Virus genome (UHGV): UHGV-0203667
Direction: 5' to 3' (one strand)
Source of the DNA: a virus
DNA: 13,326 nucleotides
Positions 532 through 13,326 of this stretch are shown one piece after another. Made by a program: the position numbers and the translations under genes. Below the pieces are notes generated by a model, which was not told the origin of the DNA, made no database searches, and was given only the letters and a program-made list of their open reading frames with translations. Every line of letters starts with the position of its first letter. The first letter of the stretch is position 1.

Positions 532-539
532 CCTACCAG

Positions 540-565
540 GGGGCCATCACGGCCCCTTTTTATTT
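540..565 (+). terminator. Rho-independent terminator: GGGGCC / atcac / GGCCCC followed by TTTTTATTT
   Basis: Perfect 6-bp GC stem (540-545 / 551-556), 5-nt loop, T-tract 557-565, 9 nt after the stop codon of the 1-531 ORF. Confidence 0.75.
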
Positions 566-578
566 ATCCCTCAATTAA

Positions 579-611
579 CCCCTATTTATCCCCTATTTAA
601 TGCCTATTTAT
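579..611. repeat. Three tandem 11-bp repeats (CCCCTATTTAT / CCCCTATTTAA / TGCCTATTTAT), helical-phase AT-rich array
   Basis: Read directly: units at 579-589, 590-600, 601-611, immediately downstream of the terminator. Confidence 0.55.
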
Positions 612-691
612 TGATTTAATCCGTTTTATGTCACAACCGCCCGGTTGACAGAGTAATAGAGAGGGTGTAACCCTTTTTCGTAATACTAATA

Positions 692-707
692 AAATCAATA
701 AGTTAGC
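692..707. repeat. 16-bp exact direct repeat AAATCAATAAGTTAGC, copy 1 (copy 2 at 8424-8439); contains an IHF-consensus-like WATCAANNNNTTR
   Basis: Identical 16-mer at both places; flanks also align with an indel (TAATACTAATA-AAATCAATAAGTTAGC vs TAATATTGTGATCTAAATCAATAAGTTAGC). Confidence 0.6.
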
Positions 708-1446
708 TTAATAAGCCTTTTCTCTATTTTTGTCAAATTTAACATACCCTAAAAAACTGCAAAATCTGGCTGCAAGATTATCTGCAGCTGGATTTCTTAC
801 ACCTCATTTTGTGGTATCACCCTGGCTAGTTTGTGCATAAATTGAACAGTTTTTAACATTTCCTCCTCACCTGGTAACCACACAAAAAGCTAAAAACGAG
901 GCACAGATAATCTTAGAGGCCTGTTTTCTTGTTATCACTCTGGAAACGCCGTAGAAGTGATTTTGATGAAAGATGACCTACCCTATTACACCCCTATTTT
1001 TTGTTATCACAATTGCATCCTGTGCGGTGTATGGCTATGTACTGAAAGCGGTTTTGGGTGTGGGTGTCAGAAATATCCATTAGCGGTATTAATACCTGTC
1101 AGATGTTCGTCTGAGGTGCCAGGCAGGCGCTCCCCTACCTCCCTTTTTTCTTCTAACAATTCTCAAATATCCGACCACTACTGACCACGTTGCTATTATG
1201 TTAATTCTTAAGCTTTGCTGTATGTTGTGCACATTATTTATTCAGGTGGCTGTACGTAAATTCTGTGCCCACTGATCATGATTTTTAAATCAGATTTTGT
1301 AGTGCGCTTTATTAGTGTAGATAAGATCTATTATGTTAAATGCAATTTTCCCAACCCTTCAAATCAATGACTTACGTGTAAGCATGCACTAACACCCCAC
1401 ACAGCACATTAGCCGTATAGATGGCTATACCCCACATATTTGATTG

Positions 1447-1469
1447 TTTTGTAGTCATTCCCCTGATCA
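1447..1469. repeat. Imperfect ~23-bp direct repeat TTTTG(T/C)AGTCATT..C..TGAT, copy 1 (copy 2 at 2177-2201); shares the CAGTCAT core also seen at 1974 and 2161
   Basis: Manual alignment of 1447-1469 with 2177-2201; CAGTCATACT occurs exactly twice (1972-1981 and 2161-2170). Confidence 0.4.
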
Positions 1470-2016
1470 TTTAACCAGTATAGCTTGTTATCTGCAGACC
1501 ACAAAATAGGAATTTACATCTGATTAACATAATCTGTTAGCATGATCACTATTACCCACACAACAATAACCCCATGTAAGCCTCTTCAGGCAATTTATCG
1601 GCGTGTTGGTGTGAACAGTCTTTCATGTTCTTTATGAATGCATTGTCCTGTGTGAGGGAAGGATGGACTGCCTCAGGGGCCATACTTATGATGCCCGGTC
1701 AACATAGCTATTGATAAAATCAACGGGTGTTGATCTACATATTTCCCACACATGAGAGGAAATCAGAGCAAAGAGAGAGGAGAGAGGTTTGTTAGTCACA
1801 TATGGTGATTTGAGCTCATCTCAAACCTTCTACGAAGGCCTTTGCTAGTCAAAATAGGTCAATTGACGGCTAATACAGAGTAAAAAATCAGATGCAATCA
1901 CTCCCCACCTGTTGGGATTAACGGCCCCGAGTCAAGGCCTATGCAACGAGGGTATTTCCTACAACCCCTTTCAGTCATACTCAGGCACCACACCCCGGTA
2001 AATATTACCCTACTAC

Positions 2017-2328
2017 CCCGGAAGATTTCTCCGCACTACCTGTAAAATATTTTTACTACTAACACCCTCGAGACGAGGGCTATTTGCACGAGTTTAACGC
2101 TCTCGGGAAGAGCTATAGGCGATTCTACCTGTGAAGAATTTTCACACCTGTGTGTTTATACAGTCATACTTTCCTGTTTTGCAGTCATTGCACCCATGAT
2201 ACACAGCCTCTAACTACTGAAGATTTCTCACTACTTAACCACCATACCTACCCACACCCCTGAGAATTTCTCACCACTACTACCGAAGATTTCTCACTAG
2301 TACCCCTGAGAATTTCTCACTCTAATAG
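2017..2328 (+). repeat. Iteron-like array: six copies of core GA(A/G)(A/G)ATTTCTCAC, the last three exactly 23 bp apart
   Basis: Cores at 2021-2033 (degenerate), 2133-2145 (degenerate, GAAGAATTTTCAC), 2219-2231, 2262-2274, 2285-2297, 2308-2320; each preceded by a C-rich tract (CCCC/CTACC). TGAGAATTTCTCA is itself a 6-bp inverted repeat. Confidence 0.6.
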
Positions 2329-2438
2329 ATAAAGGAATAGATCAATAAAAAGACCTCCCCCCTAACCCCCAGGGGGAATGGGGAGGGATCAGAGAGTGGG
2401 GAAGGTTTTCTAAGGGAAAAGCTTAACCCACAAATGAA

Positions 2439-2467
2439 AGCCTAAAGAGCATGAGCGACTCTTTAGG
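2439..2467. other. Strong hairpin: 10-bp stem GCCTAAAGAG / CTCTTTAGGC with 9-nt loop
   Basis: Perfect complementarity read from sequence; no flanking U-tract on the plus strand. Confidence 0.4.
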
Positions 2468-2839
2468 CAATCTGTGTGGGGTGACAATGTATTCCATACA
2501 TGACACGTCACCCAATTGTGTGTGGGGAGCGTAGTGCTATAGCACGTAGCTTTATAGTGTGGAGTCCGGATAAGAGACTTCTGTTTCCAATCCGGACCGT
2601 TTAAGCGAGTGGTTTCTCGCGCGGGTGCACGCACACATATATAAAGGATACACTCATAAATCGAAAATAAGGCCCCTAAATGGCCTTCTGGCTGCATTAA
2701 CCTGTGTGAGTAGTGCAATTGCATTACCTGACCTCTAAATCGCGTTAGAATCGATTTTAGAGCGCTTAAGGCAAAAGTGCTCTCCCTCCCTTGTGGACTT
2801 GCTTGTACCTATAGCACACCTAAATGATAATAATTCTCA

Positions 2840-2868
2840 TTGACAATTGGTTGACAATATGATAAGAT
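2840..2868 (+). promoter_or_regulatory. Candidate sigma70 promoter P0 (TTGACA, 17-bp spacer, TAAGAT) within a tandem TTGACAAT duplication
   Basis: -35 TTGACA at 2840-2845, -10 TAAGAT at 2863-2868; a second TTGACAAT at 2851-2858; sits about 35 nt upstream of the RBS of the small ORF at 2904. Confidence 0.35.
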
Positions 2869-2903
2869 TATAAATAGGGGGAGAAACAGATCCGGAGGTC
2901 AAT

Positions 2904-3053
2904 GTGGAAATTACAGATGTAATAGCGATCATCAACCTGGCTGTACTGTGGTGCGGTGTTGCCTACATAGCCGGAGTAACTGCAATCGACAACCTTGAAG
3001 AAAAAATGATAGATAAATACAAAAAGATTGTTGACAATCTCGCAAATAGCTGA
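2904..3053 (+). CDS. Small hydrophobic peptide (49 aa, GTG start), predicted single transmembrane helix with charged C-terminus
   Basis: SD GGAGG at 2894-2898, 5-nt spacing to GTG 2904; translation (V/M)EITDVIAIINLAVLWCGVAYIAGVTAIDNLEEKMIDKYKKIVDNLANS; stop TGA 3051-3053. Below the length cutoff of the ORF track. Overlapped by the minus-strand ORF 2868-3317, judged spurious. Confidence 0.4.
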   Translation: MEITDVIAIINLAVLWCGVAYIAGVTAIDNLEEKMIDKYKKIVDNLANS

Positions 3054-3059
3054 TAAAAT
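3031..3059 (+). promoter_or_regulatory. Near-consensus sigma70 promoter P1: TTGACA, 17-bp spacer, TAAAAT, with an A-rich upstream tract
   Basis: -35 at 3031-3036, -10 at 3054-3059; spacer contains the recurrent motif TCTCGCAAA (3038-3046); A-rich 3001-3026 resembles an UP element. Confidence 0.6.
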
Positions 3060-3065
3060 ATAAAT

Positions 3066-3141
3066 CATAGGGTAATTCTCATCATAGTGAATTTCCTTAA
3101 ACAAAAATGCGGGGGCTTGTCTTAAGTTCCCGTTTCTTTTT
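3066..3141 (+). ncRNA. Candidate ~75-nt small RNA or attenuated leader transcript, from P1 to the hairpin/U-tract at 3110-3141
   Basis: Strong promoter followed about 45 nt downstream by a 9-bp stem CGGGGGCUU / AAGUUCCCG (two G-U pairs) and UUUCUUUUU; no ORF in between. Confidence 0.3.
3110..3141 (+). terminator. Intrinsic terminator/attenuator in the leader upstream of the 3183 gene (also the likely 3' end of the small-peptide transcript)
   Basis: Stem 3110-3118 / 3124-3132, loop GUCUU, U-tract 3133-3141. Confidence 0.5.
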
Positions 3142-3182
3142 AACCGTATATCATTCTGATTCGAATTATAGGAGGCCCCGTT

Positions 3183-3398
3183 ATGGCAAGCAACGGACCG
3201 ACTAGCCCCCTGGTTAGCTGGACTACTGATGAGATCGTCGAAAACGTGCTCAGCGGCAAGTTTTATAAAAATTCTGTTTATGCTTTTATCCGTCGTAATA
3301 AAGGAAAATATCCACACATTGAAGCGGCAATTTTAGAACTGAACCGTCTTCGCCTTGAGCGTGAGCTGGCTAAATACACCAACAACATTGATAAATAA
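3183..3398 (+). CDS. Small hypothetical protein (71 aa), possibly regulatory
   Basis: SD AGGAGG at 3170-3175 with 7-nt spacing to ATG 3183; stop TAA 3396-3398; first gene after P1 and the attenuator. Confidence 0.75.
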   Translation: MASNGPTSPLVSWTTDEIVENVLSGKFYKNSVYAFIRRNKGKYPHIEAAILELNRLRLERELAKYTNNIDK

Positions 3399-3411
3399 TT
3401 ATGGGGGAACT

Positions 3412-4308
3412 ATGGCAAGTAATTACGGGGAGGTTTTTAATCCCCATTTCGAACGCCTCATTCAGTACACTTTTGATAAACCAGTAGCAACAACAATTGC
3501 TAATAAAAAGACTGGAAAAACAAAAGAGCGATTTAATTTAGACCTGATAGAGGTAACAATTTATGGAAAAATGGCAGGTTTTCATTTAAACGGGCAAGAA
3601 ATATTTATCTCAGAGCAGACCTTAGCAAAAATATGTGGTGTGAGTGATAGAAAAATCATCGAATCTATCAAAACTCTGGAAAATGCCGGGCTTATTTCTA
3701 AAGAAAGCCGGAAAGGTATGTCTAACATTTACAAACTGTTAATTACTCCTTCTCAAATCTGCAAAATGTGTGATGAACAGAAGATAGAACCAATGAGTAA
3801 TGCAGGTGGTGAAGATAAACAGCCTCAGGAAGCCCCAAAACAAGCCACACAGCAAGCTAAAAAGGCTAAAGTAGTGCAATTGCCTACCCAAGACACTAAA
3901 GCGCCTCAAATTAACGCTGTTAGTGACAAGCCACGCCGGGGCCGTCCTGTGAAAGATGTAACCGATGGGGGCTGGATTGTCCTGGGTGAGAGTGAAGCTA
4001 AAGATAGAATGCGCTCACTGTGGGAAAGCAAATACAAAGGTTTAAATAAACGTTGCCCGATCCGTTTGTCAAAGATTCAGGAGGATTTTTACACCACAGA
4101 GGAGGTAATACGCCATAAAGGCAATAGAGACGGTGAAATCTGGAAACCGGAAGAATACTGGCATTTAACCAGACCTGTTTTTATTTTTGCAAATAAACTT
4201 ATTGGGATGGGATTTGAAATATTGTTAGATCAAACTTACGGAGATTATCCTGAAATATTGTGGAGAAATGTTAGAAAGAATAAAAAAGGCATTTTAGAGT
4301 TTAGATAA
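3412..4308 (+). CDS. Winged-HTH DNA-binding protein with AT-hook-like linker (KPRRGRPVK) and a C-terminal domain of unknown function; putative replication initiator or regulator
   Basis: ATG 3412 after a GGGGG SD (the track's upstream TTG at 3355 has no RBS); N-terminal wHTH-like segment FISEQTLAKICGVSDRKIIESIKTLENAGLISKE; low-complexity linker EDKQPQEAPKQATQQAKKAK; 299 aa. Confidence 0.8.
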   Translation: MASNYGEVFNPHFERLIQYTFDKPVATTIANKKTGKTKERFNLDLIEVTIYGKMAGFHLNGQEIFISEQTLAKICGVSDRKIIESIKTLENAGLISKESRKGMSNIYKLLITPSQICKMCDEQKIEPMSNAGGEDKQPQEAPKQATQQAKKAKVVQLPTQDTKAPQINAVSDKPRRGRPVKDVTDGGWIVLGESEAKDRMRSLWESKYKGLNKRCPIRLSKIQEDFYTTEEVIRHKGNRDGEIWKPEEYWHLTRPVFIFANKLIGMGFEILLDQTYGDYPEILWRNVRKNKKGILEFR

Positions 4309-4349
4309 AAATACTGATAATCTTATTTTTTTGTTTAAGGAAATTTAAA

Positions 4350-4496
4350 ATGTATGGCGATTTTGATTATTACCTGGAAAAGGAAAAATATTTTGAAGAT
4401 GAACTATCACAACATTTTTCATATTGGGAAGAATATTGTGGTTGGTTAGCTGAAGATCCAGCAGATGAAGAAAATGATTCTGACATCCCTTATTAA
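4350..4496 (+). CDS. Small acidic, aromatic-rich protein (48 aa), hypothetical
   Basis: SD AAGGAA at 4337-4342 with 7-nt spacing to ATG 4350; MYGDFDYYLEKEKYFEDELSQHFSYWEEYCGWLAEDPADEENDSDIPY; below the track cutoff. Confidence 0.4.
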   Translation: MYGDFDYYLEKEKYFEDELSQHFSYWEEYCGWLAEDPADEENDSDIPY

Positions 4497-4587
4497 TATC
4501 CCCAAATAAACCAACAAACTACTAAATAAACTAATTACTAGAACTAGATTGATTGCCCTGATCTTTTAAACGTTCGGAGAATTAATC

Positions 4588-5076
4588 ATGTTCAAATCTG
4601 ATCTTTCTGATTCCCAATTTGAAAAACTGGTAGCACTGCAGAAATATCTCCCCAGTGATGATCAACCAACACGACAGGCCAAGCACTTATTAGTCGAGGG
4701 CTTTACCCCTGAATTCGTTGCGGAATACACAGGCGTTAAACTTGAGAAAGTCCAAAAACTATATGAAGAATCCTGGAATCCACGGTGTCGAGTTCCCCTC
4801 AGTGTCTATAACGAAATAGATAGAGATAGAAATGTCTTCGAAGATCGCCGCCGCAAATCTCTTTTAATGTGGAATTGCGGGATGAATATTGAAGAGATAG
4901 CAAAAGAATTAAAAGTAACCTGCTTTCATGTCTGGGGCTTGTTGAGCGACCTCCTGCCACGTAAGGAGCTTAATCAACGTTTGCCTAAGCCCGGTAGTCG
5001 TGCTTATCGCGAATTTATATTCATCTACCGCCGCCATAGAAATAAAGTCCAGAAAGCAATGGCCCAGAAAGCCTGA
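4588..5076 (+). CDS. Putative DNA-binding protein with two HTH-like segments (162 aa)
   Basis: SD GGAGA at 4576-4580, ATG 4588; HTH-like stretches LLVEGFTPEFVAEYTGVKLEKVQKLY and MWNCGMNIEEIAKELKVTCFHVWGLL; basic C-terminus. Confidence 0.75.
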   Translation: MFKSDLSDSQFEKLVALQKYLPSDDQPTRQAKHLLVEGFTPEFVAEYTGVKLEKVQKLYEESWNPRCRVPLSVYNEIDRDRNVFEDRRRKSLLMWNCGMNIEEIAKELKVTCFHVWGLLSDLLPRKELNQRLPKPGSRAYREFIFIYRRHRNKVQKAMAQKA

Positions 5077-5116
5077 GTTTTATCTCTTCGATTTATTTAT
5101 TTTCGACTCACTTTAA

Positions 5117-5159
5117 CCCCTTCCGGGGCTTGACGTTGTCAAGGCCGCAGCTATGCGGC
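5117..5159 (+). promoter_or_regulatory. Three consecutive hairpins (CCCC-ttcc-GGGG; CTTGAC-gtt-GTCAAG; GCCGCA-gcta-TGCGGC), copy 1 of a conserved structured element (copy 2 at 12577-12622)
   Basis: Read from sequence; lies 20 nt upstream of ATG 5180 in the 4588/5180 intergenic region; copy 2 keeps both stems through compensatory changes. Confidence 0.5.
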
Positions 5160-5179
5160 TCTAATTTAAGGAATTCCAA

Positions 5180-5623
5180 ATGTCTCAAATCGCTAAATTA
5201 TTATCCCAGGTTATCAAAGCTATCGACGCTGAAGATTCAAAAGTTCGCCAGGATCTTTTAGATGGCAAGTTTACCAACACCCTGGCATTTACCCGTGACA
5301 AAGAGCACTTCTTAAAGCACAGACATCACGCTTTCGCTGAATGCAAGTCCGCTAATGGTGATGTTTTCTATGTCGATTTGGTGGTTATGGCATGTAGATT
5401 GTGGATGATTCAGGACCTTATGCGCCAACACGGTGATGATCCTTTTATCAGCATGTGGAACAGCGCCCAGGATGGCTTTGTGATTGCTGCCTTATCCAAA
5501 TCCATGATTGAGGCAGAAGGCGCAAGCCTTCAGAACATGGCAGATCTCTTTGAAATAAGCGTAGGAATGATGCAGACCATGCTGCAGGCGGTGAAGCCTC
5601 TCAAACTGGTTAATCTTGCTTAA
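5180..5623 (+). CDS. Hypothetical protein (147 aa), first gene of the tape-measure operon
   Basis: SD AAGGAA at 5168-5173 with 6-nt spacing to ATG 5180; predicted largely helical; no family recognised. Confidence 0.8.
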   Translation: MSQIAKLLSQVIKAIDAEDSKVRQDLLDGKFTNTLAFTRDKEHFLKHRHHAFAECKSANGDVFYVDLVVMACRLWMIQDLMRQHGDDPFISMWNSAQDGFVIAALSKSMIEAEGASLQNMADLFEISVGMMQTMLQAVKPLKLVNLA

Positions 5624-5683
5624 GCTATTGATAAATAAGCACTCCCCATTTTTTGGGGGGTGCATCAATGAGAGGGTATGCCT

Positions 5684-6118
5684 ATGAATATTGAAGAAAT
5701 GATAGTTGAATTCGAAGAGGGTGATTTCCTGGAAGAAGGGGAGTTTAAATACTCCCGTTTTAAACAGGCGTTATTTAGCAGCGATGATAAACCCCACGTT
5801 AGTGATCTTAACGACGATGATTTATGTCGCTGGGTATGCACCCGCTTATATGAAGATGGAAAGTATACAGGCCAAAACTTTCCAAATCTCTATTTCAAAG
5901 CACAAACATTTGAGGAAGGGCAAAGAGTGAAAAACCTGGTCGATAAAATGCTGTCAGCCGGATATTTGCATAAAGAATTATTAAATCCTAAAGCTGAAAG
6001 CAAGCGCCATTATATTTTTGTGTGGTCTGTGGGGGATAAGTGCCCACTGCATGGGAGTCCTTCCAGGACCTTAGCTAAAGCTAAGCCCGTTGGGTCTGTT
6101 AAGCGTAAAGGCAAATGA
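5684..6118 (+). CDS. Hypothetical acidic protein (144 aa), positioned like a tail assembly chaperone
   Basis: GAGAGGG SD with 7-nt spacing to ATG 5684 (the track start at 5678 is only 1 nt from the SD); acidic N-terminus; ends with basic tail KRKGK; 2 genes upstream of the tape measure gene. Confidence 0.7.
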   Translation: MNIEEMIVEFEEGDFLEEGEFKYSRFKQALFSSDDKPHVSDLNDDDLCRWVCTRLYEDGKYTGQNFPNLYFKAQTFEEGQRVKNLVDKMLSAGYLHKELLNPKAESKRHYIFVWSVGDKCPLHGSPSRTLAKAKPVGSVKRKGK

Positions 6119-6119
6119 T

Positions 6120-6305
6120 ATGAATACCTACGAAAAGATTTATCAAAAATTAAAAAGTGATAACAATGCTCCCGTCATCAAGGGCGGGGCTTCTTCCTCT
6201 GGTGACCTCTCAATCGAAGAGCTTGCGGAGAAATATAATATTGATAAAGAGGCCCTGAAAAGGGCTATTTCATTATCAAAATCTTTAAGACAGGGCGAGG
6301 TGTAA
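6120..6305 (+). CDS. Small hypothetical protein (61 aa) immediately upstream of the tape measure gene
   Basis: ATG 6120 directly after the stop of the previous gene (TGA 6116-6118); its frame is open from 6075, overlapping the previous gene's 3' end; stop 6303-6305, 3 nt before the tape-measure ATG. Confidence 0.55.
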   Translation: MNTYEKIYQKLKSDNNAPVIKGGASSSGDLSIEELAEKYNIDKEALKRAISLSKSLRQGEV

Positions 6306-6308
6306 GAG

Positions 6309-8411
6309 ATGGCAATGAAGGAAGTCGCCAGACTAACAAACGTTATTTACTGGGACTCTGATAAATCCTCCTGGCGAAAAGAAGTTAAGCGCTTGGAGGA
6401 TTATAAAAAATCCTGGAAGAAAGCTACCGACGATATAGCTAAAGCGGATTTTAAATCTAATCAGGCTGTGCTCAGAACACAAAGAACACGCGCTAAGGTG
6501 GAAGAGCAGATCGCCAGAGCACAGAAGAAACAACGTGCTCAGGCTGTCAGCCGTCTGACCGGGGGCAATAATCCGGAGCTCTCCTCTATGCGCAAGTTCT
6601 ATCAGCAGCAAGCCAGAGAGGCCGCCAGACAACAAAAACTGTTAGATCGTAGTGTTGGAGATGTTCAGCACAGAAAAGCACGTGTAGGGGCCAACAGTGC
6701 ACGAATCAGCAGCATGTTTGATGGCTCCCTGGTTGCTCAGTTCCAATCCAGAATTCAAAGAGTTAATGCTGATTATGCTAAAGGGGCTATTAACCTGCAG
6801 ACCTATAATCAGAAAATGGCCCGACTCAGATCTGAAATGAAGATGGCAACAGCAGAGGCCGGAAAATTTCAGAGCAAACTGGATAGAGTTGCGATCACAG
6901 GATCTAAGCTGCATGACAACCTGGGGAAACTAAATTCTACTTTAGGCAAGATAGCTATTGGCCTTACTGCCGCTGGCTGGGGTGTTCAGCGTGCTGTTAG
7001 TGGTGCTATGGGTAGCCTTGCAGATCGCAACAGTGCCTACTTCGGTTTGATGGCACAGAACAAGGATGATAAAGCCAAGACTGATCAGCAGATGGCCTAC
7101 GTCAAAAGAATCTCTTATGACTACGGGATGGATCAGCGTGAGACCGAAGGCGGTTTTATGCGCTTTGCTGCAGCCACACCGAGCATAGAAGAGAAAGATA
7201 AACAGGCTCTTTTTGAGGCTATGGCTATTAAAGGTCGCTCAGTGGGTGCTACCGCAGACCAACAGAACAGGGCTATCGTTGCACTAGGGCAAATATATAG
7301 CAAGGGCGGTCGGGTGTATGCGGAAGAGCTTAAGGGCCAACTTTCTGAAGCCCTGGCAGGTTCTCAGGTAGATTTCACTAAGGCCGCTATCGATGCCGGA
7401 GTCATCAAGAAAGAGGAAGAATTTAATAAAGCCCTTGAAGATGGCAAGATCACCATGGATAAGCTTCTCCCTTCTTTGGTGAAAATCTGGTCTGCAGCCA
7501 AGAATACGAAAGCCTTTGCTGAATCCATGAAACAGCCAGAAGTAGCAATGCAGCGCATGAAAAACAGCTTTAACGAGCTGGCGATTCAGTTTATGGGTGT
7601 TGTGGATCCTGCCGATGGCGTTGTTAGCTTATCTGAATCTCTGATCTCCATCTTCGAAGACCTCACCACTGATATGGACGGCAGCGGGAGCGCGGCAAAA
7701 CAGTTTGGTGAAGCAGTCGGTGCTGCCATGCGGGAGATCATGTATTGGGTAGGCTTCGCTAAGGGATATATCGAGGTCAAGGCTAAAGAGTTCGGCATGA
7801 CCGGATCAGAGGTTGGCGAGCTTATCGGGAAACTAGTAGTCGGCTTAGCTGGTCTGAAAGTTATTACCACACTGCTTTCCCCTCTAACCGGATTTGTTTC
7901 ACTTGTCACCCAACTGATAGCCTTGTTAGGTAAAATCCCTGGTATGAGCAAGCTTATGGCATCTGCCTCAGGTGGAACGGCAACAGGAGCAGCAGTTATC
8001 AGTGCAGGCTCTAACGCTGAAAGAAGCTTCATTGATGGCAAGACGCAGGAAATGAGTAAGGAGAACTCAAAACAGGGTGCTTTGTTTGAGCTGGGAAGAT
8101 TTGTCAGCAATGCTGGCGCACTGTTCACACCTGGCGGTGATACTGGTCCTTTGTTCGATCAGGTCAAAGGCTGGTTTAATAAAGGGCCAACATTGACAGT
8201 AGACACTGGCATCAGACCAACACCAACGGGTGGCATAGCTATCCAGAATGGTGGATATCAACCAGTCCAAGTAAATGTAGCCCCACAAGGTGAGATTTCC
8301 GGCAAATGGGAGATAACCATCGATGAGGGGGGAATTGCCAGGGTGATCCAGAAGGAAGTCAGCGATCAGTTGGATTGGAAAGCCACACAGGAATCTAACC
8401 AGCTTTTCTAA
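6309..8411 (+). CDS. Phage tail tape measure protein (700 aa)
   Basis: SD GAGGTG with 7-nt spacing; charged coiled-coil-like N-terminus; motif ALGQIYSKGGRVYAEELKGQLSEALAGSQ, recalled as the conserved tape-measure motif; central hydrophobic segment (LIGKLVVGLAGLKVITTLLSPLTGFVSLVTQLIALLG); Gly-rich C-terminal part. Confidence 0.8.
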   Translation: MAMKEVARLTNVIYWDSDKSSWRKEVKRLEDYKKSWKKATDDIAKADFKSNQAVLRTQRTRAKVEEQIARAQKKQRAQAVSRLTGGNNPELSSMRKFYQQQAREAARQQKLLDRSVGDVQHRKARVGANSARISSMFDGSLVAQFQSRIQRVNADYAKGAINLQTYNQKMARLRSEMKMATAEAGKFQSKLDRVAITGSKLHDNLGKLNSTLGKIAIGLTAAGWGVQRAVSGAMGSLADRNSAYFGLMAQNKDDKAKTDQQMAYVKRISYDYGMDQRETEGGFMRFAAATPSIEEKDKQALFEAMAIKGRSVGATADQQNRAIVALGQIYSKGGRVYAEELKGQLSEALAGSQVDFTKAAIDAGVIKKEEEFNKALEDGKITMDKLLPSLVKIWSAAKNTKAFAESMKQPEVAMQRMKNSFNELAIQFMGVVDPADGVVSLSESLISIFEDLTTDMDGSGSAAKQFGEAVGAAMREIMYWVGFAKGYIEVKAKEFGMTGSEVGELIGKLVVGLAGLKVITTLLSPLTGFVSLVTQLIALLGKIPGMSKLMASASGGTATGAAVISAGSNAERSFIDGKTQEMSKENSKQGALFELGRFVSNAGALFTPGGDTGPLFDQVKGWFNKGPTLTVDTGIRPTPTGGIAIQNGGYQPVQVNVAPQGEISGKWEITIDEGGIARVIQKEVSDQLDWKATQESNQLF

Positions 8412-8423
8412 TATTGTGATCTA

Positions 8424-8439
8424 AATCAATAAGTTAGCC
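8424..8439. repeat. 16-bp direct repeat AAATCAATAAGTTAGC, copy 2 (copy 1 at 692-707)
   Basis: Exact match to 692-707; begins 13 nt after the tape-measure stop codon. Confidence 0.6.
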
Positions 8440-8462
8440 TGACCGGATAAACTCCAGGCAAG

Positions 8463-8493
8463 AAAAAAGCCCCTAAGTGTTAACAAAGGGGCT
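8463..8493 (-). terminator. Intrinsic terminator for the leftward head operon (AGCCCCT / 12-nt loop / AGGGGCT followed by UUUUUU on the minus strand)
   Basis: 7-bp stem 8468-8474 / 8487-8493; A6 on the plus strand (8463-8468) gives a U-tract on the minus-strand RNA; the plus-strand side lacks a U-tract. Confidence 0.55.
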
Positions 8494-8523
8494 CTTCTCC
8501 GGTATCCTTTTGATGCGGGGCAA

Positions 8524-8571
8524 AACCTGCTAACAAAAATCAACCTCTCGCGAGACTAATGTTAGCAGGTT
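8524..8571. repeat. Perfect 12-bp inverted repeat AACCTGCTAACA ... TGTTAGCAGGTT with 24-nt spacer containing palindrome TCTCGCGAGA
   Basis: Arms 8524-8535 and 8560-8571 are exact reverse complements; inner palindrome 8546-8555; the spacer carries a degenerate copy of the AAATCAAC(C/T)TCTCGC motif. Confidence 0.55.
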
Positions 8572-8913
8572 GCCGGAAGGTAAGTCAACTCCGGCCTATA
8601 AACCTTAAAGCGACTATAAAATTGCCCCGCCAATTGTGATGATCCGACCTTTGAGGCGGGTCCGGTGCCCAGGGGGTGCAGTGATGCACAAACCAGGCAA
8701 CGATAAACAGGCTAACAGTGATAGCGGCGCTCTCTCAGCGCACTAAATCCTAACCAGTCCGGGAAAGAGGCTGGCTCTATCGACCGCTCATGCACGGGAC
8801 AATGCATACCTGATAAAGGATTCTCACAAGGGACCAATCGCGAGAAAAGAAGTGGAAAGGGGCTGATTTGTGGTGTATCACTACGGCCTCAAAAGACACC
8901 CTATTGCCTTTTT

Positions 8914-12660: not shown

Positions 12661-12757
12661 ATCTTTTGATCAATATCAATGTTTTCCTGGGATTTGCCCG
12701 GCTATAGTTCGAATCAAGGAAGGGGAGCATTGATAGCACCAAAACCGAACAAACAAA

Positions 12758-12772
12758 TCAACTTCTCGCAAA
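12758..12772 (+). promoter_or_regulatory. Conserved leader motif TCAACTTCTCGCAAA directly 5' of the SD of the 12784 gene (identical copy at 13301-13315)
   Basis: 15-nt exact repeat; both copies are followed by an SD-like sequence (AAAGGTGA / AAAGGGG); the TCTCGCAAA core also lies in the P1 spacer (3038-3046). Confidence 0.45.
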
Positions 12773-12783
12773 AGGTGATAGTT

Positions 12784-12906
12784 ATGGGTATCAAGAACAG
12801 TGCCAGCGCATGGCAAAAGGCCAGGTTTCATCACCCACACATTGTTAAGGCAATTGAGGTGGTTGGAGTGTTAGCCCTGATGTTAGCTCTGTGTGTGGAG
12901 GTGTGA
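12784..12906 (+). CDS. Small peptide (40 aa) with hydrophobic C-terminal segment, predicted membrane peptide
   Basis: SD AGGTGA at 12772-12777, 6-nt spacing to ATG 12784; MGIKNSASAWQKARFHHPHIVKAIEVVGVLALMLALCVEV; the track ORF starts earlier (12679) but has no RBS there. Confidence 0.45.
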   Translation: MGIKNSASAWQKARFHHPHIVKAIEVVGVLALMLALCVEV

Positions 12907-13008: not shown

Positions 13009-13269
13009 ATGACGGGGGCTAAAGATATCAGGAGACTGAGGGAAGAGCTGATAGCTGAAATTAAAGCTAAGGCAAAGCAAATGGAGATAGCCGCGCAAAT
13101 GGATGTAGCGGAACAGATGTACAAGATGGTTGAAGAGGGAACACCACGACAGGTTATCGCTAAAACCTTCGGTGTGGGGATCGCCACCGTGCACAGAAGG
13201 CTGAAAGCCTATGCCGACTACCACAACATTGAGAGAGGGGAGGATGGGAGATTTAAGAAGAATAAATAG
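13009..13269 (+). CDS. Small DNA-binding protein (86 aa): coiled-coil-like N-terminus plus C-terminal HTH of the Hin/resolvase or sigma region-4 type (TPRQVIAKTFGVGIATVHRRLK)
   Basis: SD GAGAGGAG before ATG 13009; preceded by a tandem-duplicated RBS-ATG unit and an 8-codon upstream ORF whose stop overlaps the start (ATGA). Confidence 0.75.
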   Translation: MTGAKDIRRLREELIAEIKAKAKQMEIAAQMDVAEQMYKMVEEGTPRQVIAKTFGVGIATVHRRLKAYADYHNIERGEDGRFKKNK

Positions 13270-13300
13270 TAGGAACAGTCCAACAGGTTATTAACTAAAT

Positions 13301-13315
13301 TCAACTTCTCGCAAA
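13301..13315 (+). promoter_or_regulatory. Second copy of leader motif TCAACTTCTCGCAAA followed by SD-like AAAGGGG; downstream gene start lies beyond the window
   Basis: Exact 15-nt match to 12758-12772, 32 nt after the stop of the 13009 gene. Confidence 0.4.
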
Positions 13316-13326
13316 GGGGTACCGTC

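Follow-up and report, generated by a model that had tools for sequence, protein, structure and literature searches.

The question raised by UHGV virus genome UHGV-0203667 is what an exact 16-mer, AAATCAATAAGTTAGC, is doing at two distant places in its 13,326 nucleotides, the whole of which was analysed and is referred to here as the window. One copy lies 134 nt downstream of the terminator hairpin of the first gene (538-558), and the other lies 12 nt past the stop codon of the tape-measure gene and 26 nt before a bidirectional terminator (about 8464-8500). The initial annotation, drawn from the sequence alone, had correctly placed the copies near these two gene ends, and had interpreted them either as recombination junctions of a 7.7-kb cassette, resembling phage attachment (att) sites, or as paired architectural sites. 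It gave the first copy its right position and set the second, at 8424-8439, one base too high. The two copies are:

Positions 692-707, plus strand: site 1, AAATCAATAAGTTAGC, an exact copy of the 16-mer and a site of the integration host factor (IHF) consensus.
Positions 8423-8438, plus strand: site 2, AAATCAATAAGTTAGC, an exact copy of the 16-mer, between the tape-measure stop (8411) and the bidirectional terminator.

No further copy was found in the window at two or fewer mismatches. Our analysis suggests that on balance the 16-mers probably belong to a set of architectural sites of the IHF type, IHF being a DNA-bending protein of the host. The architectural option of the initial annotation comes close to this best reading, except that the sites number at least three and do not form a pair.

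The window is one complete circular Escherichia coli plasmid replicon of 13.3 kb, linearised at the ATG of gene 1, because its end and its start adjoin each other in aligned relatives and the whole of it aligns to plasmid records. A search with the tape-measure protein recovered, at 79-91% identity, six E. coli plasmids, five measuring 13.2-13.7 kb and the sixth 39.6 kb; over its full length the window aligned at 91-93% to these as well as to other plasmid records. No chromosomal place was found for the family in 5,426 complete E. coli genomes, where it occurred as free plasmids only. Close relatives are here nine oriented and aligned plasmid records and two metagenomic circles that were added later (n = 11). 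A wider family, of contigs measuring 13-15 kb and 19-20 kb, was reached through homologues of a Dit-like protein of the plasmid; in it synteny is kept and the same 2-3-kb region devoid of open reading frames (ORFs) is present.

Judged from the single sequence alone, the 16-mer match is suggestive. Some exact repeat of at least 16 nt, in either orientation, occurred in 34 of 300 dinucleotide shuffles of the window, a count that takes in low-complexity self-overlaps and is hence inflated, and the analytic chance estimate was about 0.08 for either orientation and about 0.04 for direct repeats only. The latter value lies near the expectation of 0.02-0.04 on which the match had been called unlikely by chance, but the shuffles put it at about 1 in 10. 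The imperfect extension to about 28 bp that had been described for the pair was not recovered, as local alignment within the window ended at 16 nt, inside the range of the shuffled controls; in element L001, sites 1 and 2 share 23/25 nt, AAAATCAATAAGTTA(T/G)CTTAAT(A/C)GG. Comparison among relatives was decisive, for both copies are conserved at the same positions in 11/11 close relatives and the repeats are therefore real, constrained features.

The IHF consensus WATCAANNNNTTR, as quoted in PMC10380432, is contained in both copies, as had been recognised from the outset. The sites at 692, 1361 and 8423 all fit it, and the window holds four matches against 0.91 expected, all of them intergenic or on a stop codon. 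Site 2 is invariant at 16/16 positions in the 11 close relatives, and site 1 takes the form AAATCAATA[AG/GC/AC]TTA[G/T]C across relatives. Among 10 aligned elements, all nine IHF-specified positions of site 1 are invariant and two of the four unspecified (N) positions vary, while just 19 of the 40 nt upstream of it are invariant. The two metagenomic elements agree with this pattern, so that over 12 elements site 1 changes only at two of four N positions and at one base beyond the consensus. Further members of the motif family in the window are:

Positions 1361-1374, plus strand: site 3, AAATCAATGACTTA, the third exact match to AAATCAATNNNTTA.
Positions 602-617, minus strand: a partial inverted copy, AAATCAATAAATAGGC, that departs from the TTR part of the consensus.
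Positions 5621-5633, minus strand: a fourth IHF-consensus match, TATCAATAGCTTA, over the stop codon of a 147-aa gene.

The string AAATCAATNNNTTA is matched three times in the window against 0.01 expected. Site 3 is invariant at 14/14 positions in close relatives, and the spacing of site 1 to site 3 is fixed at 669-670 nt in all 12 elements. The inverted copy at 602-617, invariant at 15/16 positions in close relatives and absent in L010, forms with site 1 an inverted pair around a 74-nt segment. A long hairpin between 608-628 and 681-701 was rejected as a structure, since no compensatory changes were found outside its 10-nt core, and a likeness at 664-674 to the Ter site of Tus was set aside as the segment is not conserved in relatives. 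The match at 5621-5633 is retained in 6/10 aligned elements, with a different sequence in the others; it is the weakest member of the motif and may be a chance match. Intergenic DNA of the wider-family contigs repeatedly contains AAATCAATAA[C/G]TTA: it follows the tape-measure gene, stands on either side of the variable gene and occurs within the ORF-free region. Two of the L010 copies have the opposite orientation, and several distant elements carry one inverted copy downstream of the variable gene. Because orientation is not fixed, as the copies in L010 and the inverted partial copy of the window demonstrate, the motif fits a site that acts at the DNA level more than an RNA signal.

The same motif was also sought outside the plasmid family, using 107 nt from both sites as the query against all complete E. 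coli genomes. It was found at four chromosomal places, all of which lie inside other mobile elements:

Locus L027, 6005-6025: 5 nt beyond tRNA-Thr gene thrW, at its 3' end; AAAATCAATAAGTTAGCTTAA, 21 nt identical to site 1.
Loci L026 (6012) and L029 (6005): the motif in two CP4-like islands.
Locus L028 (6006): in a P4-like satellite, about 95 nt downstream of its integrase gene.

The chromosomal motif extends over 21-24 nt, AATAAAATCAATAAGTTAGCTTAA. L026 and L027, the two loci tested, share no protein and no other DNA with the plasmid, and the presence of the motif in unrelated mobile elements of no other similarity is what would be expected of a site for a host factor. A search with the thrW flank led to thrW-integrating phages. 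The attP sites of HK446 and SfI read ...TATCGGCACCA-TTT/TTA-AAATCAATAAGTTA, where AAATCAATAAGTTA starts 3 nt outside the 46-bp attP core and overlaps the int stop codon; site 1 agrees with the SfI attP flank at 16/16 positions, and site 2 with that of HK446 at 15/15. Phage P22 has AAATCAAATACTTA at the homologous place, which is also a match to the IHF consensus. This position is presumably the P22 site at which Leong and colleagues in 1985 and Smith-Mungo and colleagues in 1994 are reported to have footprinted IHF. The attP of P22 is listed with IHF binding sites that are not essential for recombination (PMC4111918, table 1). The end of IS1, AAATCAGTAAGTTG, a sequence verified in at least 5,000 records, is identical to the motif at 12/14 positions. 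Work by Gamas and colleagues in 1987 is said to have found that IHF binds the ends of IS1.

Site 3 differs from the other two in its surroundings, as it stands beside a putative site for the XerC and XerD recombinases:

Positions 1314-1341, plus strand: a dif/cer-like XerCD core, AGTGTAGATAA-gatcta-TTATGTTAAAT, with a 6-bp spacer.
Positions 737-747, minus strand: GTATGTTAAAT, which matches the XerD arm at 10/11 positions, follows site 1 after 29 nt and is oriented as in the Xer modules of distant relatives.

With the E. coli dif sequence taken from PMC2731167, the XerD arm TTATGTTAAAT at 1331-1341 is identical at 11/11 positions and is the single exact copy in the window, and the core as a whole agrees at 21/28, its XerC arm at 7/11. 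The core is invariant at 28/28 positions in close relatives. An exact XerD arm is present in single copy in every close relative and in L010, L011, L013, L016, L020 and L022, the core of L016 matching dif at 24/28. Site 3 starts 19 nt beyond the XerD arm in the window; in the six more distant elements just named a motif copy lies 13-25 nt from the arm, inverted in comparison to the window arrangement. The exact XerD arm is missing from two relatives with a serine resolvase, L018 and L021, and the second of these is also without the motif in its intergenic DNA. The likeliest recombination site of the plasmid is thus this single Xer core, probably serving multimer resolution, and one member of the motif is most likely part of the predicted Xer module. 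The 16-mers themselves have no similarity to a Xer arm, and no XerD-like arm occurs within 90 nt of site 2. The arm at 737-747 could be a remnant, a half-site or a chance match, and a second Xer site by site 1 was rejected for want of an acceptable XerC arm at a spacer of 6, 7 or 8 bp.

This arrangement allows a more specific suggestion, which we regard as speculative and rather unlikely: that the motif cooperates functionally with Xer recombination in a plasmid-borne, phage-satellite-like family not described before, placing an IHF-type bend on the XerD side. Placement of the motif at 13-25 bp is kept across lineages whose surroundings do not align, and it is missing together with the Xer arm in the resolvase-bearing L021. 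If correct, this would be a new accessory architecture for plasmid Xer sites, and sites 1 and 2 would add more bends, by which the two conserved non-coding blocks are folded into a single nucleoprotein complex.

That the repeats have no function, being left over from a short duplication or matching by chance within conserved DNA, is very improbable. A single-sequence chance level of about 0.1 would allow it, as would the location of site 2 in a uniformly conserved region, where its own conservation is uninformative. Against this, site 1 is a conserved island by a variable flank and varies only at consensus N positions, the motif persists in distant relatives where the non-coding surroundings can no longer be aligned, and the relation of the third copy to the Xer core is fixed throughout the family.

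Several observations nevertheless weigh against IHF as the protein concerned, an assignment that rests on sequence. Variation follows the consensus within the close family only. In distant relatives the site just after the tape-measure stop loses TTR as that half drifts and keeps AAATCAAT, which indicates that the AAATCAAT half is the more constrained part. Conservation also exceeds what the consensus needs, at A1, T8, R9 and the base after TTA, and up to the 23/25 nt of L001; this excess could reflect shared descent or a more specific binder. Strong IHF sites typically have an A/T-rich tract on their 5' side, and the corresponding flank is clearly A/T-rich at site 1 (TAATACTAATAA), moderately so at site 2 (ATATTGTGATCT) and not A/T-rich at site 3 (CCCAACCCTTCA). 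About 15 of 19 copies in distant relatives are co-directional with rightward transcription, a bias for which IHF has no obvious need. To our knowledge, IHF is not known to assist at a Xer site from its XerD side. Finally, a protein of the element itself co-occurs with the motif:

Positions 13009-13269: a stand-alone HTH_7 protein of 86 aa.

This last point can be interpreted as the motif being an operator of the plasmid's own HTH_7 (resolvase-type) protein, which would regulate or organise the non-coding regions while the likeness to IHF sites would be incidental. The protein matches its Pfam family above cutoff and has no catalytic domain. Homologues of 44-58% identity, with an invariant recognition helix G-x-A-T-V-x-R-R, occur in all motif-bearing relatives tested (L010, L011, L020 and L022); L018 and L021 carry the full serine resolvase instead, and other L021 proteins of that region gave no HTH_7 match. 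Hin-family HTH domains recognise half-sites like TTATCAAAAA, AAATCAAT is the best-conserved motif half in distant relatives, and ATCAA units are found as close palindromes at 1709-1733. We consider the operator explanation unlikely all the same, because sites 1-3 are single units and not the dyads or close tandem repeats expected of a small dimeric HTH protein, because substitutions track the IHF consensus exactly, and because the 14-24-nt motif is also present in attP arms, CP4-like islands and a P4-like satellite, where the tested loci L026 and L027 share no plasmid protein. The HTH_7 protein was also considered as a remnant of the resolvase of the relatives, and this was rejected as no significant similarity was detected.

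Alternatively, the motif may act at the level of the transcript, as a promoter element for a helper-phage or plasmid transcription factor, or as a signal for RNA processing or termination or an antisense target. All three full copies are on the plus strand, in the direction of local transcription, in keeping with the co-directional majority of distant copies; copies lie 6-160 nt after stops or 36-128 nt before starts of rightward genes, and the RNA of the inverted copy at 602-617 would be complementary to sites 1 and 2 over 10 nt. Such a role is improbable on the remaining evidence. None of the three window sites precedes an ORF, no sigma-70 promoter match was found at the sites, L010 has its two copies oppositely oriented, and the inverted copy shows no covariation with site 1. 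A candidate small RNA of the plasmid is predicted to pair with two 5' untranslated regions (z about -4) and not with the sites (z of -1.3, +0.5 and -1.4). The motif is absent from 50 kb of the rV5-like phage FV3 and from a 21-kb myovirus locus (L015), and it is therefore not a promoter of the nearest phage relatives.

The reading of the 16-mers as IHF-type sites leaves the initial proposal of a cassette to be weighed, in which the repeats would be att-like junctions, or recombination sites, of a 7.7-kb segment inserted next to the head operon. Identical direct repeats at the boundaries of gene modules do resemble such junctions, a 14-mer of the motif is identical to part of a real phage attP arm, and the DNA just upstream of both copies is prone to insertion and deletion (a 51-bp indel at one and variable 11-bp repeats at the other). 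The 51-bp insertion/deletion polymorphism is at 8411/8412, immediately upstream of site 2, flanked by CTAAT microhomology, and was observed in 5/9 relatives. Against these points, 11/11 close relatives have both copies and the whole arc between them. Relatives lacking the segment were looked for among these 11 and none was found, with no single empty-site copy, no deletion form and no insertion/deletion polymorphism of the segment, the outcome by which the initial annotation had itself proposed to judge its cassette refuted. The more distant E. coli relative L010 keeps the gene order and the complete arc, with neither copy 1 nor the inverted copy after the terminator of gene 1, and with only a degenerate copy 2, AAGATCAACAATCTAAGC, after its tape-measure gene. 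The arc is itself a mosaic, with breakpoints in identity to the window at about 1800, 2800, 3100, 4400, 5000-5200, 6000-6200 and 7000-8200, and no breakpoint falls at either repeat (692 or 8423).

The copies also do not evolve in concert, as copy 1 drifts while copy 2 does not, so that the two do not undergo gene conversion. None of the plasmid's ORFs was found to contain an integrase, resolvase or transposase domain, the only related domain being the stand-alone HTH_7. The likeness to attP is limited to the IHF-site part and does not include the core: no attP or thrW-like att core was found beside the plasmid sites, and the 5,426 E. coli genomes, where the family exists only as free plasmids, contained no integrated family copy in a chromosome, the motif alone being present in four chromosomes inside other mobile elements. 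As the window is a complete circular replicon, any two sites on it enclose two arcs, and since the 7.7-kb arc holds the replication initiator and the iterons, the other arc of 5.6 kb could not replicate alone. The initial annotation had itself named a dispersed common motif as an argument against its cassette, and the same motif is indeed present in unrelated mobile elements. On this evidence the cassette is extremely improbable, and the two copies are neither a recombining pair nor the limits of a mobile unit.

From the sequence we infer that IHF would bind at these sites, and the following consequences are conditional on that binding. Each bound IHF would bend the DNA sharply. At site 3 the bend would stand beside the XerD arm, where it would shape the multimer-resolving complex of the plasmid. 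Sites 1 and 2 are located at the 3' ends of two transcription units, site 1 after the variable gene 1 and site 2 between the tape-measure operon and the convergent terminator of the candidate small RNA. Both lie at edges of highly conserved non-coding blocks, where a bend may organise a regulatory or packaging complex.

The outcome is mainly corrective, in that apparent cassette ends are predicted to be binding sites of a host-factor type and the supposed module is not a unit of mobility. The sites mark a likely nucleoprotein architecture, next to the dif-like site and where two unusually conserved non-coding blocks have their edges, and they reveal a 14-24-nt motif that the plasmid has in common with other mobile elements of E. 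coli and with the attP arms of phages. Sites of the IHF type are already known from plasmids and phages, and the present ones are a new set in an undescribed plasmid family. The surrounding 13-kb plasmid, which has capsid, tape-measure and baseplate-hub genes and no packaging genes, may matter more than the repeats.

The non-coding DNA around sites 1 and 3 has further features. The ORF-free block at 700-1800 (1.1 kb) is invariant at 76-92% of positions per 100-nt interval in ten elements and has variable flanks, and the stretch from site 1 to site 3 is free of indels. Outside the family no DNA homologue of the block was found, and L010 resembles it only in patches. At its right edge, 1709-1733 reads TTGAT-AAA-ATCAAC-GGGT-GTTGAT, which contains three ATCAA/TTGAT units in two overlapping palindromes and is largely invariant; these palindromes are a possible operator. 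Two features precede site 1:

Positions 538-558, plus strand: the intrinsic terminator of gene 1, conserved in all relatives.
Positions 569-609, plus strand: phased 11-bp repeats, CCCTATTTA, between the terminator and the inverted copy, found also at 981-999.

Relatives differ in the copy number of the CCCTATTTA repeats and in extra inserts, and the array could represent phased bends or a protein array. On the side of site 2, a candidate small RNA is predicted on the minus strand within 8455-8640, the RNA itself being placed at 8455-8556, in a hyper-conserved 500-bp spacer between the tape-measure and tail-completion genes, and is ended by the following hairpin:

Positions 8464-8500, both strands: a bidirectional terminator hairpin with compensatory pairs and a U-tract on the minus strand.

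A conserved promoter, TTGACT/TAACAT, belongs to the candidate, which also has a hairpin at 8522-8570; its fold z-score is -5.9, and the compensatory pairs of its terminator are found in distant relatives. Its first 30 nt are predicted to pair with two ribosome-binding regions, that of gene 1 and that of a 40-aa ORF (12784-12906), the targets being 12755-12775 and 13298-13318 (dG of -25 to -26 kcal/mol, z about -4). The plasmid seems, from these predictions, to contain a separate small-RNA system.

The genes and remaining features of the plasmid are:

Positions 1-531: gene 1, a variable membrane protein.
About 2.3 kb in length: the region without ORFs.
Positions 2213-2322: four iterons of 21-23 bp, upstream of the replication initiator.
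Positions 3355-4308: the replication initiator, HTH_36 / lambda O-like.
Small genes, then positions 6309-8411: the tape-measure ORF (700 aa).
On the strand opposite to the tape-measure gene: tail-completion, Dit-like and major capsid genes and a 111-aa gene.

No terminase, portal, integrase, resolvase, sheath or tube gene was detected among the plasmid genes. The capsid and tape-measure proteins are about 25% identical to their rV5-like myovirus counterparts, and a myovirus contig of 91.7 kb (L015) encodes a protein with 45% identity to the Dit-like one. The element looks like a plasmid-borne phage satellite. Gene 1 (1-531 with 13270-13326) is a hypervariable cargo slot between conserved flanks, and relatives carry other membrane proteins or T5orf172/DUF723 proteins at the same place. 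Both the region of the iterons and the replication-initiator module downstream of it are variable, which suggests that origin and Rep co-vary. On either side of this Rep module (about 3108-4327), at 3090-3107 and 4328-4345, stands one arm of an exact 18-nt inverted repeat, AATTTCCTTAAACAAAAA, which is longer than the 16-mer and lies exactly at the edges of the variable segment. The 39.6-kb record L009 (NZ_CP043822.1, 39,610 bp) is a head-to-tail trimer of a 13.2-kb unit with one copy full of frameshifts, and is either a real multimer or an assembly artefact.

Searches beyond the family added little. A literature search by topic and by protein accession found no paper on this plasmid family. 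DNA comparison of the window and of both conserved non-coding blocks with 50,697 phage records gave nothing useful, so that an origin of the motif from a helper-phage cos or pac site or promoter was not demonstrable. The non-coding region, when compared with other plasmid families for an oriT or cer homologue, matched the same family only. An Rfam scan yielded nothing beyond a sub-threshold ctRNA match on the terminator. Relatives were also sought among GTDB species representatives and in IMG/VR, and a conserved 27-mer in GTDB, with no match and no integrated form in another species in those scans.

The repeats can be compared with several known systems. Among the P22-family, thrW-type attP sites, those of SfI and HK446 have an identical AAATCAATAAGTTA beside the core and that of P22 has a consensus match at the homologous place, but the plasmid has neither a tRNA-like core next to any copy nor an integrase, and its three copies are spread over the replicon and do not form one att arm. 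The ends of IS1 are similar in their 12/14 identity to the motif, and the plasmid has no IS1 inverted repeats or transposase. Phage P4 has an RNA-based immunity that involves the short repeats seqA, seqB and seqC. Like these, the 16-mers are short repeats in the long non-coding leader of a small satellite-like element; in contrast to them, they are poor targets of the candidate small RNA and their orientation is not conserved. The attL/attR pairs of integrated elements, integron attC sites and the pdif modules of Acinetobacter also have two identical short direct repeats at module boundaries, whereas the plasmid shows no recombinase, empty site or block inheritance, and its repeats are not Xer cores. 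The sites cer, psi and dif resemble the region beside site 3, with its conserved 28-bp core, dif-identical XerD arm and 6-bp spacer and a motif copy always beside it. The accessory sequences of cer and psi are on the XerC side and bind PepA with ArgR or ArcA (bioRxiv 10.64898/2026.02.23.706985). In the plasmid, by contrast, what is conserved next to the core is an IHF-like motif, which lies on the XerD side, and two members of the same set, sites 1 and 2, stand apart from any Xer core.

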